IMG/VR virus record: IMGVR_UViG_3300035659_001474
Coordinates: 85,110 to 128,327 of that record
Origin: a virus
Lineage: Duplodnaviria; Heunggongvirae; Uroviricota; Caudoviricetes
Length of the DNA stretch: 43,218 nucleotides
Strand: one strand, 5' to 3'
In this document: piece after piece, positions 1 through 36,111 of the stretch
How positions within the stretch are numbered: the stretch's first letter is position 1
Layout: each line of letters opens with the position of its first letter
Translations under genes and position numbers: made by a program
The notes under the pieces: model-generated
The model's input: the letters and a program-made list of their open reading frames with translations, nothing else
What the model was told of the DNA's origin: nothing
The model's database searches: none

Positions 1-152
1 ACATTGGACAATTCGCGTTCAGGCCGTGCTGTAACTCTTCTTTTGCTTTTAGGGTGTCTTTTCAAGTAATCTTTCTGCGTCTCTTGAGAAAGCTCATCCC
101 ATTTAGCAGCTTCTTTAATAAACTCTCTCTGAATAACAGCAAAATGTTTCAT
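1..152 (-). CDS. Hypothetical protein, N-terminal part only (runs off the left edge): MKHFAVIQREFIKEAAKWDELSQETQKDYLKRHPKSKRRVTAR...
   Basis: ATG at 152-150 with GGGG upstream. The frame is open to the window edge. Not in the ORF track. Confidence 0.65.
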   Translation of the reverse strand, partial: MKHFAVIQREFIKEAAKWDELSQETQKDYLKRHPKSKRRVTARPERELSN

Positions 153-175
153 TGTAACCCCATAAGTTAAAGTAA

Positions 176-715
176 TTAGAACGTCAATCTCCAGGTAATT
201 GTGAGTGTCGATGTACTCGGCTTGTTCCAGACGGGCATTGTGTAGTAATTGCAAATATCACCGAGCAACGAAATTGTTGCATCATTGCCACCAAACAGTG
301 CCATTTCAACAAGTGCACCGACTGCTTCTGTGTCATTGTACACTGTCTCATACTCAACAACATTTGTTCGAGCTAACGGTGATTCTACAAACGTCACAGG
401 ATCAACATAATACACTCGATTAAAAATCTTCCTAAACAACTCATTAACTAATGCTCCCTGACTAGCAGACGCGGGTGGCGGATTCTGCTTATCCCATCCA
501 GGATCACCTGTACCAACTGCTAATGACTTCAATCCCGGTACATACGTTCCCGGCGTGCCAGGTACAGCATTATCAGACATTAACTGAGCCATCAAAAATG
601 ACGCATTATCTACAATAACATTATGCGCCGTTCGACGCTCAATAGTCCCATCTTCATGCTTCATCACCATAAAAATATCACCGCGCTTAATCCGAAGATT
701 ATTCTCCAACAACAT
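176..715 (-). CDS. Tail-collar/tail-fibre attachment protein (P2 gpH N-terminal-like), 179 aa
   Basis: HNVIVD, LAVGTG, L.NELFRK, EAVGALVEMALFGG and PVWNK...LTITWRLTF motifs. Lies directly after the wedge gene. GGAGG SD before the ATG. Confidence 0.7.
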   Translation of the reverse strand: MLLENNLRIKRGDIFMVMKHEDGTIERRTAHNVIVDNASFLMAQLMSDNAVPGTPGTYVPGLKSLAVGTGDPGWDKQNPPPASASQGALVNELFRKIFNRVYYVDPVTFVESPLARTNVVEYETVYNDTEAVGALVEMALFGGNDATISLLGDICNYYTMPVWNKPSTSTLTITWRLTF

Positions 716-726
716 ATGTCCTCCAA

Positions 727-861
727 TTAGTTAAGTTTTCTAATCTCAACTGTACCATCTTTATGCTTCATTACTCCAACAGCTGCATCACCCTTAATCC
801 TTGGCACTTCCTCTTTCAACGGCTTAACAGCTTTCTTAACCTGATCTTTCTGCATCTGCAT
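727..861 (-). CDS. 44-aa micro-protein, paralog of the N-terminus of the downstream collar protein
   Basis: GGAGG 7 nt before ATG 861, so the track start at 918 is too long. RIKGDAAVGVMKHKDGTVEIRK aligns with RIKRGDIFMVMKHEDGTIERR. Confidence 0.6.
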   Translation of the reverse strand: MQMQKDQVKKAVKPLKEEVPRIKGDAAVGVMKHKDGTVEIRKLN

Positions 862-865
862 AAAT

Positions 866-33827: not shown

Positions 33828-34238
33828 CTATTCCTTCTTTTCTTCTACACCCTTAACTTCTACTTCACCTGACTCTCTCTTATCAACTGACAGCTTTATC
33901 ACCTTATCCAATATACAATACTCACTAAACAAATAATCTATCAACTCGTCACCAAATGATGCAACAATCTCTTGCTTCTGCTTCAACATCCCCTTAGGAT
34001 CTAACTTCACATCATTCACTGATATAATCGCTCTTGCAACTGTATCAATCTTCAATGACTGAACACTAGCCTCAGAATCACTATACCTATTACTATTCTC
34101 AAATATCTCAACTACTTCACTAGCCATCAACGGCGCTAACACTATCTTCACATCTGACACTGTAACTTCTCGCTCTTGATACTTGTACATCTCTAACGAT
34201 TTCAAAGCATCAAGCGCTTTTTCCTGATCACTAGCCAT
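33828..34238 (-). CDS. Tail assembly chaperone-like protein (paralog 3), 136 aa
   Basis: V.L.PL...E...K.DT.ARAI.SVN...K..I.....ELID.L..EY..L pattern shared with the two upstream genes. AAGGAG SD. Confidence 0.65.
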   Translation of the reverse strand: MASDQEKALDALKSLEMYKYQEREVTVSDVKIVLAPLMASEVVEIFENSNRYSDSEASVQSLKIDTVARAIISVNDVKLDPKGMLKQKQEIVASFGDELIDYLFSEYCILDKVIKLSVDKRESGEVEVKGVEEKKE

Positions 34239-34239
34239 A

Positions 34240-34689
34240 TTAACTCTCCTTTACATCTGTTTTAATGTTCATTGCTTCTCTCTTTGCCTCTGCATCTTTC
34301 ACACCTATCACATTAGTCTGTGCTGTTATCTCTATATTCTTGAAAAAACTATCCAACGATGACAACAACTTGGCATATTCCAAATACAACTCATCAATCA
34401 ACTCTTGGTGCCAACTTGATATTATCTGCTTCTTCTCACTAATACCCATCTTATCTAATGACATCTTATTCACGTGAGTAATTGATCTACAAAGCGTCTC
34501 AATCTTATGCTGGTAAATAAACGCCTGTCCCCACAAATTCATACACTCAATAAATGTATCTGTCTCGTCTTTTGCACCAAGTGTCCTAACTGTAACCACA
34601 AAATTCTCTATAGTCACATCCTTCGACCTATGTCGTATCTCAGAAATAGCATTCATGGCCAACAATGGATCTTCAAACTTCTTTGTCAT
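34240..34689 (-). CDS. Tail assembly chaperone-like protein (paralog 2), 149 aa
   Basis: V.VRTLG..DE...K.ETL.RSI..VN...K..I.SW..ELIDELY.EY..L. AAGGAG SD. Confidence 0.65.
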   Translation of the reverse strand: MTKKFEDPLLAMNAISEIRHRSKDVTIENFVVTVRTLGAKDETDTFIECMNLWGQAFIYQHKIETLCRSITHVNKMSLDKMGISEKKQIISSWHQELIDELYLEYAKLLSSLDSFFKNIEITAQTNVIGVKDAEAKREAMNIKTDVKES

Positions 34690-34703
34690 AACTACTCCTT
34701 AAT

Positions 34704-36053
34704 CTATCTGGTTTTTTGAATTTGATCAATCATCTCTTGTTGCTCAGCCTCAAACTTGTTCTTCTTATTAGCTGCAGATAATATTCTCTCTCTAGCAGAT
34801 AATATCTTATCTGTATTATCAACTGGTTGTTGAATTGAAGCATTCTTCAATGCTTCAAGCTTTTTCACTACTTCAGATTTCTCTTGCTCTTCTTCTCTCA
34901 AATATTCTTCTATATACTTAGTTGTATCTTCTTCAGATTCGTTAGTTACTTCTTTGAATATTTGGTCTCTATTCTTAAGCATGATAAATGATGTTATCTG
35001 AACAACCTCAGAATAATCTATGTTGTTCACTACCCACTGACCTTTTATTTCTTGTACATCTACAACATCATCACCAATAGTAGACACTTGATGAAATCCA
35101 ACAATCATTCCTGCAGGCGTCTTTGGCACGTCAATTACTATTGCATTGGTCATTTTTCTTTCATGTAATATTTTTGCACGCCTAGTATTCTCTTTCTTTA
35201 TCCGTAATTGTTTTATGAACTGATATTCTTCATATTCTCTAACTATCTTATCATGCTCATCTTCAGTAAATGCTTTGGCAACTGATTGTCCAACACGATT
35301 TTGATAGTCTAATACTGATTCACCGGGTTTTCTAGTAAGTGCATCAAATAATTCATCAGCTGAATTCTCTATCATTAACTTCTCCTTTGAATCTGTCTGA
35401 ATCTTTGTAACTTCATCTCGTTTTTCTCTTAACATCTGTTCTTCTTGCTGTAACTTCTTCCTACTTTGAACATGTTGCATTGCTTTAGGATTAACAAACG
35501 TACAAATCGAATCTGTCATGTATTCGACTTTAGCCCAATCAAGCTTATTATGTTCAATTAAATCGTCTTGCTGGTGTAGATATATCCAAATTTGTTGAAT
35601 ATACGATAAGCCGTTAGATTCTAATTCCTGATTTCCAGTGATAGCTGTGCTATTAAGAGACGATTTAGTCGTCTTTATTACAGTCCAACGCAACTTTGAT
35701 TCATCAGTCTTTATGAATTCGTTGATTAGTTTTGTGGCTTCTCGTACACGACTGGCAAGCGTTAAATATACTTCAAATATTTTGATTATTATTTGCTTGG
35801 GCCAATTGCGTATAAGCTTCTTGGCATCGTCAGTTATTTTACAGCCATTGATAGAATATATTGCGTACTGTATAGTGTCAGCAGCAGCTAATAGATTATA
35901 TTCGTTAGGTAGATTTTCGTATGTCTCGACAACTTGACTTTCTTCTGCTACTCCTAAAGTTCGAATGACCACTACTAAATCATTGAACTTGATAGTTTCT
36001 TTTAGAAAGCCATCAAAAACAAGATCTTTAATGTCACTGAATCTGTCATTCAC
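34704..36053 (-). CDS. Tail assembly chaperone-like protein (paralog 1) with a long charged C-terminal extension, 449 aa
   Basis: V.IRTLG..EE...DTI.YAI.SING...K.LI.NW...II..IF..Y..L. Start placed at GTG 36053 because the track's TTG 36143 lies inside the upstream terminator. Confidence 0.6.
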   Translation of the reverse strand: MNDRFSDIKDLVFDGFLKETIKFNDLVVVIRTLGVAEESQVVETYENLPNEYNLLAAADTIQYAIYSINGCKITDDAKKLIRNWPKQIIIKIFEVYLTLASRVREATKLINEFIKTDESKLRWTVIKTTKSSLNSTAITGNQELESNGLSYIQQIWIYLHQQDDLIEHNKLDWAKVEYMTDSICTFVNPKAMQHVQSRKKLQQEEQMLREKRDEVTKIQTDSKEKLMIENSADELFDALTRKPGESVLDYQNRVGQSVAKAFTEDEHDKIVREYEEYQFIKQLRIKKENTRRAKILHERKMTNAIVIDVPKTPAGMIVGFHQVSTIGDDVVDVQEIKGQWVVNNIDYSEVVQITSFIMLKNRDQIFKEVTNESEEDTTKYIEEYLREEEQEKSEVVKKLEALKNASIQQPVDNTDKILSARERILSAANKKNKFEAEQQEMIDQIQKTR

Positions 36054-36111
36054 GTAATACTTCTCTTGTTGATATACTGCAACAGATGTAACGCAGAATT
36101 TACGAAGATAG

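Follow-up and report, generated by a model that had tools for sequence, protein, structure and literature searches.

The stretch of DNA analysed here (the window) comprises 43,218 nucleotides, positions 85,110 to 128,327 of IMG/VR record IMGVR_UViG_3300035659_001474, and represents the tail region of a 128-kb jumbo myophage fragment, whose relatives have genomes of 330-416 kb. On one strand, silent positions form patches of 0.5-3 kb each that are either rich in G and T (keto lobes) or rich in A and C (amino lobes), and this pattern runs on for about 20 kb past the left end of the window. Exact protein matches are present in the metagenomic read set SRR11721627. The lobes, together with the genes and other elements among which they lie, are listed in Table 1.

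Table 1. Lobes, genes and other features of the window, with one candidate factor encoded outside it (G000, genome of this window; other G and L handles, relatives)
Feature	Coordinates	Strand	Description
Keto (G/T) lobe	170..2500	-	last third of the 2156-aa gene and the 179-aa gene; z 8.1 for 700-2300; also in G002; grows over ~3 kb toward the gene end
Further near-identical tracts shared with G002	917-965, 25348-25387, 35874-35916
Near-identical tract shared with G002	1328..1403	-	26 identical codons amid 50% codon identity
Baseplate wedge gene	7344..10901	-	phrog_6; skew flat at baseline, slope z 0.8
Amino (A/C) lobe	11700..12800	-	begins at the 12880 junction; z -4.4 / -3.6 in G000/G002; its edge is the sharpest drop of the window (step D = -7.0 at 12819)
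Keto lobe	12900..16300	-	3' half of the 1889-aa Ig-like-repeat gene; z 8.0; found in G002, L104
Short amino lobe	18150..18550	-	start of the 1889-aa gene; pooled shift -0.9 in five lineages; weak in G000 alone
Amino lobe	21400..22330	-	start of the 1193-aa gene; z -4.6 for 21000-22500
Keto lobe	25300..26200	-	3' half of the 699-aa gene; z 4.8; kept in G002, L104, L106, L110; sharp intragenic rise at ~26.1-26.25 kb (step +5.0 at 26239)
Amino lobe	26500..27200	-	start of the 699-aa gene; z -6.2
Strongest amino lobe	29300..30700	-	238-aa and 185-aa genes past the tape-measure stop; z -8.3, G/R 0.11; kept in G002, G006/L104, L110
Tape-measure gene, 1082 aa	30578..33826	-	PHROG tape-measure matches; skew declines along the gene, slope z -3.5
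Keto lobe	33800..34700	-	149-aa and 136-aa genes; z 7.4; rise +4.5 at 34639; gradual fading along the tape-measure gene; does not follow the start rule
Amino lobe	35500..36050	-	start of the 449-aa gene, directly past the intrinsic terminator; z -3.4; pooled -1.0
Intrinsic terminator (hairpin and U tract)	36110..36154	-	after the 212-aa virion gene; -22.2 kcal/mol, z -3.5; kept in 10/10 family members aligned there
Tail sheath gene	37163..40006	-	phrog_2839; G and C both up (G/R 0.44, T/Y 0.70 vs expected 0.27, 0.81), a high-expression GC3 pattern and not a keto lobe
EndoMS/NucS-like candidate trans factor	G000:70001-70660, outside the window		PF01939 at cut-off

Synonymous G/T versus A/C usage is overdispersed 4-6-fold across the window. 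In 500-nt windows from which amino-acid effects had been removed, the variance was 4.2 at two-fold R and 2.6 at two-fold Y sites, and 2.1/2.0 at four-fold R/Y sites, compared to 1.0 in shuffles; amino-acid composition is thereby ruled out as the cause, in agreement with the first-pass annotation. The all-site variance drops from 6.5 to 3.3 under within-gene shuffling, so about half of the skew variance is intragenic, and K, i.e., logit(G/R) - logit(C/Y), ranges from +2.9 to -2.0, which makes the reported sign flips inside single genes genuine. Along the keto axis, the R and Y tracks move together (rho 0.4-0.5). The hand counts behind these claims were reproduced exactly, both for G and C in six 60-nt segments and for Lys codons (13 AAG and 2 AAA in 33828-34238; 1 AAG and 10 AAA in 29862-30578). 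Independent assemblies of relatives rule out an assembly artefact, and the structural region of Tunturi_5 (59% GC), serving as a control, is flat (variance 1.06).

Eight of the twelve lobes named in the first-pass annotation stand, namely the keto lobes near 0.7-2.3, 12.9-16.3, 25.3-26.2 and 33.8-35 kb and the amino lobes near 21-22.5, 26.6-27.2, 29.4-30.7 and 35.6-36 kb, while those placed at 28.1 kb (z 0.7), 3.3-7.3 kb (-1.4), 10 kb (0.6) and 17.3-18.5 kb (-1.5) are baseline; the amino lobe at 11.7-12.8 kb had been overlooked. The idea of a periodic oscillation had to be given up: spectral analysis yields no peak above an AR(1)+noise (red-noise) model, and the skew is aperiodic with a correlation length of 650-975 nt.

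The lobes are anchored to gene junctions. Amino lobes begin at a subset of gene starts (p<=0.003), with junction drops likewise at p<=0.003 at 600 nt, and keto lobes mostly grow toward gene ends. The mean junction step is a drop in both G000 and G002 (p 0.001-0.008), and remains so at p 0.001 when the first 150 nt of genes are left out; along genes, 5' to 3', the skew rises in 16 and falls in 3 cases at |z|>2, long genes having flat middles rather than linear ramps. The junction fit is carried by a downstream A/C term, and an upstream G/T term is attached to only some junctions, which would correspond to one-sided elements. Most sharp edges are G/T-to-A/C drops at junctions, several of which come after intrinsic terminators (36.1, -8.5 and -14.3 kb), and steps are strongest in the late block (sd 1.7-1.9 vs 1.1-1.2 in early genes). 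Two conserved sharp rises, at 34.6 and 26.1 kb, have origin-like polarity, the overall asymmetry in L104/L110 is of the rising kind, and G/T-to-A/C runs occur in the tape-measure gene, an 849-aa gene, the leader-tag cluster and an opposite-strand glycan island. A motif shared by the switch points, as the first-pass annotation had envisaged, was not found by shared words, a sigma-70 scan, junction alignments of 13 genomes or synonymous footprinting; the lobe edges have no hairpin or nick consensus, and apparent footprints at 34.7, 26.1 and 21.1 kb have no motif in common.

The shift itself is of the transition type, confined to A<->G and C<->T: the slope is close to 1 for A/G as well as for C/T, and the four-fold T versus A slope is small (0.12). 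All codon boxes move together, and the first positions of Leu CTA/TTA shift equally strongly (slope 1.5). The sequence-context slopes mirror between the strands (r 0.54, p 0.03), with the CpG context being weakest on both. Selection on wobble pairing or tRNA supply is rejected by these Leu first positions and by the strand-mirrored next-base context, and the phage-encoded tRNA set is alike in skewed and flat relatives. The bias has been active in both lineages since their split (A>G 0.27 vs 0.18 and T>C 0.08 vs 0.17 in high vs low zones).

In relatives with 53-80% protein identity and synonymous sites near saturation, lobes are found again at the homologous positions (r 0.5-0.8), which bears out the earlier proposal of a heritably positioned, strand-asymmetric bias at the DNA level; positions match even at 53-63% protein identity. 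The correlation between genomes holds when the codons compared are disjoint (r 0.64), when only codons with a changed amino acid are used (r 0.57) and within that half of the windows which has diverged most (rho 0.62), and these tests of disjoint sites and high divergence rule out inheritance or recent homogenisation. At the same time, lobes are faint in the nearest sister, G001, and absent in outgroup clades with identical gene order that share the 36.1-kb terminator with the skewed genomes. G000, G002, G006 and L110 are among the skewed phages, and G001, G004, L109 and G007 among the flat ones. The mean skew of G000 is about that of the flat sister (0.60 vs 0.48), and lobes are not more diverged (0.68/0.71 vs 0.73); both would be expected of a process that varies in the direction of fixation and not in its rate. 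The relatives have a DnaE/DnaB replisome, with DnaE found in the two larger relatives only, and, along their 330-416 kb, a single uniform skew. Neither DNA polymerase A nor B was found, nor was a reverse transcriptase (PF00078) in five records, all incomplete. A mobile endonuclease (22956-24959) is rejected as the cause, as its presence does not follow the skew, and no restriction or methylation word is significantly related to amplitude across 13 lineages.

Short-tract exchange connects G000 and G002: runs of at least 14 identical codons number 15, with 0.43 expected. Between close relatives, exchange tracts measure 0.24-1.1 kb, at 6-7 tracts per pair. Tract ends of the G002/G005 pair lie near junctions (median 52 nt vs 355, p 0.007), one pair being not significant in this respect, and L104/G006 tracts fall in strong lobes (p 0.035); the proximity to junctions may reflect selection for whole-gene swaps only. 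On balance, recent exchange tracts lean neither to keto nor to amino (13 tracts, p 0.88), and recent SNPs show no tendency to track lobes. Self-BLAST of the genome detected only paralogous leader-tag heads of 100-154 nt at 71-81%, none of them in window lobes, and a repeat search gave nothing relevant in lobes.

The explanation that we prefer, though only tentatively, is that the skew patches arise from an undescribed strand-biased DNA repair or recombination process that is anchored at gene junctions, rather than from closely spaced origins. The process would start at putative nicks or other entry sites at a subset of junctions in the late/structural and replication blocks, from where one strand would be removed 5'->3' over a length of between a few hundred bases and a few kilobases. 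The strand with its 3' end facing the junction would be retained. The retained strand might gain G and T through exposure to deamination of C and A, and G.T wobble mismatches in it could be fixed rather than corrected. Where the coding strand is acted on, an A/C lobe would be left past the gene start; where it is the template strand, a G/T lobe would be left ahead of the gene end; and some junctions would have both kinds. As to chemistry, G/T mismatches are far commoner than C/A mismatches with DnaE-type polymerases (PMC6159521), and in mouse cells the processing of breaks biases the choice of the strand that prevails at a mismatch (PMC9001825). In favour of patch repair count the drop geometry at junctions, the match between the correlation length of the skew and the length of exchange tracts, the placement of these tracts near junctions or in strong lobes, the strand-mirrored transition signature, and a direction of fixation that changes without a change in divergence. 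Counting against it are the motif-free edges, the lack of lobe-directed bias in recent tracts and SNPs, the rises at 34.6 and 26.1 kb with the rising asymmetry in L104/L110, and the G/T-to-A/C runs mentioned above; moreover, pure deamination of exposed tails should lift divergence, and no lift is observed.

The EndoMS/NucS-like protein was considered as a trans factor. It has a RecB-type nuclease domain with D..ExK and QxxxY (D130, E143, K145, Q156 and Y160 are invariant in 25 homologues), and its best fold matches are 2VLD and 5GKE. The N-terminal mismatch-binding domain of EndoMS is absent: about 125 columns align to EndoMS, and the N-terminal part of the model is all-helical. As a cause it is rejected, given that the gene is intact in the flat genome G004 and broken in the near-flat sister G001, where the break looks too recent to explain G001 because the remnant is still 68% identical.

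A transcription-coupled bias that varies along the transcription unit is a doubtful alternative. The non-template strand might be more exposed with distance from the promoter, giving G/T toward unit ends, and the template strand might be hit more, or repaired less, just past promoters or at antisense ends, giving A/C at starts. The anchoring on gene starts and ends, the strength of the late block and the drops after terminators all agree with this, and the polarity equals the 5'-C / 3'-G skew of fungi (PMC3315797). A block inverted in G001 keeps its coding-strand skew as well, and part of the baseline may follow transcription. Yet ordinary transcription-associated mutagenesis yields only G/T on the coding strand, no promoter motif was found that separates resetting from non-resetting junctions, lobe divergence is not raised, the opposite-strand island runs the opposite way, and the outgroups are flat despite identical gene order and terminator.

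Short replication domains seem unlikely, though they remain a rival because the 34.6- and 26.1-kb edges have origin-like polarity and resemble initiation zones. Frequent late re-priming from R-loops or D-loops in genes, with bidirectional forks halting at protein-bound junctions, would let fork direction vary every few kb. The signature matches that known for leading strands, C>T and A>G (PMC6159521), a constant rate with changing direction fits, as do the zero-mean lobes, and RecA is present in larger relatives. However, closely spaced origins or fixed priming sites, as proposed by the first-pass annotation, predict a sharp A/C-to-G/T rise and slow decay, and most sharp edges have the wrong polarity; in addition, there is neither a period nor an edge motif nor a linear ramp in the flat middles of long genes. 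Lobes of 1-3 kb correspond to about one Okazaki fragment for a DnaB/DnaE replisome. Primase words of the T7, T4 or DnaG type are not oriented by lobe, GTC/GAC and other words being equally enriched in both lobe types.

Selection on RNA is improbable. It would favour A/C-rich, unstructured, pause-free or Rho-loading sequence past starts and G/U-rich sequence (A/C-rich antisense) near ends, which agrees with a gene-anchored pattern conserved over saturated divergence; a change of host could account for its loss in some lineages, and amino-acid-changing positions respond weakly (odds ratios about 1.2-1.5, not significant). Known initiation effects reach tens of codons, far short of lobes of 0.5-3 kb that persist without the first 150 nt. 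Strand-mirrored context dependence is a property of double-stranded DNA, the joint shift of all codon boxes and Leu first positions also speaks against selection, and the most expressed genes, tail sheath and tube, vary on another axis. Non-coding DNA, of which there is little, tilts the same way (GC skew 0.18, 0.13 and 0.02; rank test not significant). A small-scale mosaic of alleles originating from opposite replichores, the alternative offered in the first-pass annotation, is very improbable and largely refuted despite frequent recombination among relatives, because saturated divergence has left the lobes on the same codons, and no donor of A/C alleles is known because these genes sit on the G/T-rich strand in 13/13 relatives.

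The closest known likeness is to GRINS, which occur in PKS and similar repeats, are duplicated over >500 bp at >80% identity and have intense raw skews of both GC and TA (PMC8256042). Both systems have ~1-kb G+T and C+A blocks on the same strand of coding DNA, strongest at third positions, with sign changes within 1 kb; GRINS are linked to gene conversion, and the phages have short exchange tracts between orthologues, without net skew. In contrast to GRINS, phage lobes are single-copy, so that they lie outside the duplication definition, milder, junction-anchored and kept in position across diverged orthologues. GRINS have mean absolute GC and TA skews that both exceed 0.15 in 150-nt windows and are correlated; over 1-36100, |GC| is 0.18, |TA| 0.11 and their correlation 0.01, and no window lobe is clearly above both thresholds. 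The fungal skew is likewise seen in some genes only, with C-biased starts and G-biased ends, and varies in strength between related species (PMC3315797), much as phage skew rises from start to end in a subset of genes. In fungi it extends into promoters and UTRs and is tied to transcription starts. However, it concerns eukaryotic Pol II genes with flat AT skew, whereas in the phage A/G and C/T both move, if with a small four-fold T versus A slope, genes are polycistronic and resets occur at only some junctions.

Mammalian replication N-domains span hundreds of kb. They share with the phage lobes G and T up on one strand, a transition signature and a sawtooth-like profile (review PMC3269016; leading/lagging keto spectrum PMC6159521), but they jump up at origins, decay linearly in between and are far larger than the aperiodic, 1-5 kb phage pattern with its mostly sharp drops. 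Such an assignment is rejected here, as drops dominate junctions, conserved rises number only two, and no origin word, footprint or primase site was found at switches. At meiotic double-strand-break hotspots and T5-type fixed nicks, opposite skews flank a fixed site and decay over ~1 kb of resection. Phage sites differ in being often one-sided and in having no nick consensus.

A literature search returned no report of such skew patches in phages. In phages and bacteria, strand skew is taken to reflect how forks travel along entire replichores; in the present case, its sign changes every few kb, it recurs at the same codons after synonymous turnover, and it goes from full strength to zero at constant gene order. 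Local GC-skew flips in large phages thus need not mark origins or foreign DNA. It is conceivable, if rather questionable, that an undescribed, site-anchored pathway of DNA processing operates in this clade of jumbo phages, provided either by the phages themselves or by their host. Such a pathway would act from gene or transcription-unit boundaries, make deaminations or G.T wobble mismatches permanent on one of the strands and be the process behind GRINS, switched on and off naturally among relatives. These relatives provide a natural on/off series for the cause of GRINS-type and gene-scale keto/amino skews.

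The window lies at the right-hand end of G000, a linear viral record of 128,327 nt, and every gene between 176 and 40006 is carried on the minus strand; together these genes make up a myophage tail block with baseplate wedge, tail proteins, tape measure and sheath. The first-pass annotation had reported a strong swing in third-position usage along these genes: its 60-nt hand counts and lysine codon counts were all exact on recount, and the swing is real, with corrections, after the mean of each codon family is subtracted. With variance taken in 500-nt windows, these vary 4.2-fold more than shuffles at 2-fold purine sites, 2.6-fold more at 2-fold pyrimidine sites and about 2-fold more at 4-fold sites (all synonymous sites pooled: 6.5 vs. 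3.3 for within-gene shuffles). Since G increases together with T along the window, and A together with C, the axis is keto/amino and not GC3; sheath and tube genes vary on a separate GC3 axis. K, i.e., logit(G/R) - logit(C/Y) at synonymous sites, changes sign (+2.9 to -2.0), and its mean equals that of the flat sister (0.60 vs. 0.48). Of the 12 G/T- or A/C-rich patches (lobes, 0.5-3 kb, coding strand) named at first, eight are upheld and four lie at baseline; the proposed oscillation has no period, the correlation length being 650-975 nt.

The shift consists of transitions, seen in nearly every codon family, and the dependence on sequence context is mirrored between strands (r 0.54; slope 0.61 for a purine after C, 0.60 for a pyrimidine before G). 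First positions of the leucine codons CTA/TTA shift as well (slope 1.5), which rules out wobble selection. Amino-acid changes lean along the lobe direction, not significantly, and divergence is no higher in lobes than outside. Recent differences between close relatives arrive as exchange tracts of 0.24-1.1 kb, which end near gene junctions in one close pair (p 0.007), lie within strong lobes in the other (p 0.035), and have no net keto or amino bias. Our literature search found no paper reporting such a skew pattern in phages. GRINS, duplicated regions with G+T and C+A blocks, have the same signature and scale, but in G000 the defining duplication is absent and the raw skews are too mild (PMC8256042). 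The fungal 5'-C/3'-G skew has polarity and patchiness in common with the lobes (PMC3315797).

The lobes are conserved. The relative G002 has 79% protein identity to G000 and synonymous divergence at 63-73% of saturation, and its skew track matches that of G000 (r 0.61-0.67). The match holds when disjoint codons are compared (0.64), at codons whose amino acid has changed (0.57) and among the windows of highest divergence (0.62). Substitutions on either branch follow the lobes of the other, with an outgroup near saturation and hence noisy. Lobes are kept in lineages at 53-63% identity (track correlation 0.62-0.80 for G006/L104, 0.61 for L110, 0.47 for L106, 0.38 for G003), with amplitudes of 1.10, 0.73, 0.66, 0.91, 0.39 and 0.48 across the lobe-keeping lineages. 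For the sister G001 the amplitude is 0.33, for L108 it is 0.20, and the five outgroup lineages range from -0.14 to 0.13; G003 and G004 otherwise show a single uniform skew across 330-416 kb. Because every lineage with an amplitude of at least 0.2 falls in one clade of the tree (support 89/91), the simplest reading is a single gain followed by uneven decay. Recurrence across relatives rules out assembly error, and conservation in diverged relatives rules out the alternative offered at first, a mosaic of alleles from opposite replichores. Conservation and lineage loss together imply a trans-acting or host-dependent factor that works on fixed positions.

One candidate was a nuclease encoded directly after dnaB, whose C-terminal part has the NucS/EndoMS fold and whose N-terminal domain is helical and novel (25 homologues, catalytic residues invariant). 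Its catalytic motifs are present and the EndoMS N-terminal domain is absent. It is not sufficient as the skew factor, since flat G004 carries the gene intact and G001 a broken copy. In G001 only its last ~28 codons remain, behind a 352-aa ORF (L120:1625-2683) with TnpB-like motifs, judged by eye. Elsewhere, window 24159-24747, part of an HTH-rich gene, is almost identical to G002 (24-52 identical codons per run) through recent transfer. In coding DNA, TTTAAA occurs far less often than expected across the whole genomes of G000 (0.19 of expected) and G002 (0.06), and such avoidance is absent in G001, L104, L106 and L110. Family-wide, on both strands, GG and CC are depleted and TGACA/TGTCA is enriched 1.2-2.2-fold. 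At ~254-290 kb of G003 (L037-L057, tail-gene orientation) lies a 35-kb stretch in which C-ending codons are far more frequent (z to -23) than in the remainder of that genome, probably because it is foreign or subject to a different codon selection.

Lobe boundaries and other loci; negative kb values lie left of the window start
Feature	Location	Strand	Remark
A/C lobe starts (certain gene starts)	window 36.1, 30.6, 27.1, 22.3, 18.5, 12.9, 7.3 kb		
A/C lobe starts (certain gene starts), outside window	-5.2, -8.5, -11 kb		
Gene ends toward which G/T lobes mostly build	window 33.8, 25.0, 12.9, 0.2-0.9 kb		
Gene ends toward which G/T lobes mostly build, outside window	-8.1, -10, -14.3, -16.5, -19.8 kb		
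HTH-rich gene with phage endonuclease I-like domain	window 22956-24959	minus	patchy among relatives
219-aa nuclease	G000:70001-70660 = L113:6002-6661	minus	~14.5 kb left of window
Lambda-like replication cassette (initiator-like, DnaC-like, DnaB)	G000:70823-74740 = L113:6824-10740		

Followed along the direction in which the genes are transcribed, A/C lobes fade within 0.5-1.5 kb of their gene starts, and G/T lobes mostly grow over 1-3 kb toward certain gene ends. The mean junction step is a drop in G000 and G002 (p 0.001-0.008 at 300-600 nt, vs. shifted junctions), which persists when the first 150 nt of genes are left out (p 0.001) and which neither flat relatives nor the early region show. 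Skew rises 5'->3' along 16 genes and falls along three. In model fits, those to chosen junctions being post hoc, the signal comes from the A/C term downstream of junctions, and the G/T term upstream is tied to some junctions only; the elements are thus one-sided in many cases. There are real exceptions: the skew climbs sharply at 34.6 kb and within a 699-aa gene (26.1-26.2 kb), and it declines along the tape measure, in the leader-tag cluster and on the opposite-strand island. In the leader-tag cluster (G000:18578-26747), the coding strand becomes steadily more A/C-rich toward the terminator heading the main tRNA array, G at 2-fold purine sites reaching 0.03-0.06; this trend, common to G000 and G002, is opposite to that of the tail block. 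The track has a weak time asymmetry (p 0.045, 0.013 at 400 nt), which runs the other way in L104 and L110. Intrinsic terminators precede three drops, and no motif was found at the edges of the remaining ones. The terminator after the 212-aa virion gene (window 36110-36154, minus) has co-varying paired arms and a CATTGAC word in its stem-loop in 9/10 family members. Antisense sigma-70-like promoter matches (10/12) lie at the 3' end of the 731-aa gene (27169-27196, +) and of the tape-measure gene (30651-30678, +). Both are kept in G002; their position at A/C-lobe edges may be chance.

A drop at a fixed site results from any of three geometries: removal of a strand 5'->3' from that point, termination of forks or transcripts at it, or a bias near the promoter that affects the template strand. 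We tentatively favor strand removal beginning at fixed junction sites, because lobes are often one-sided with flat stretches between, agree with exchange tracts in length and to some extent in where they end, and differ in direction but not in rate. A nick or entry site at the junction would then open one strand to 5'->3' processing, and some accompanying chemistry would produce the G/T gain. Transcription-coupled bias, with which the terminators before three drops would be compatible, is a doubtful alternative. Short replication domains are unlikely: leading-strand sequence gains G and T (PMC6159521), so fixed origins or priming sites predict a sharp rise and slow decay. The first-pass interpretation, which invoked such sites, is thus borne out for heritable positioning and contradicted in polarity, most sharp edges being reversed. 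RNA selection is improbable, and mosaicism of alleles hardly credible.

As to replication genes, G000 has its initiator-like gene, DnaC-like loader and DnaB ~11-14 kb left of the window, and DnaE and RecA are encoded by its 330- and 416-kb relatives. For the G000 sheath, the closest match from a cultured phage is in Tunturi_5 (309 kb, 33%). The records searched, all incomplete, yielded neither a family A or B polymerase nor a reverse transcriptase. The ~830 nt of non-coding DNA preceding the cassette, with CGCGCG-containing direct and inverted repeats, are a candidate origin; the cassette is followed by genes for a trigger factor, a PD-(D/E)xK exonuclease and an NAD ligase. G000, G001, G002 and G004 each have a CTA-anticodon tRNA (ARAGORN label: Pyl), and G004 an additional one with a TTA anticodon; these are possible stop suppressors, although genes read openly under table 11. 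In pattern, signature, anchoring, conservation and lineage loss, the lobes are shown to be a real, lineage-switchable strand-skew footprint anchored on gene junctions.
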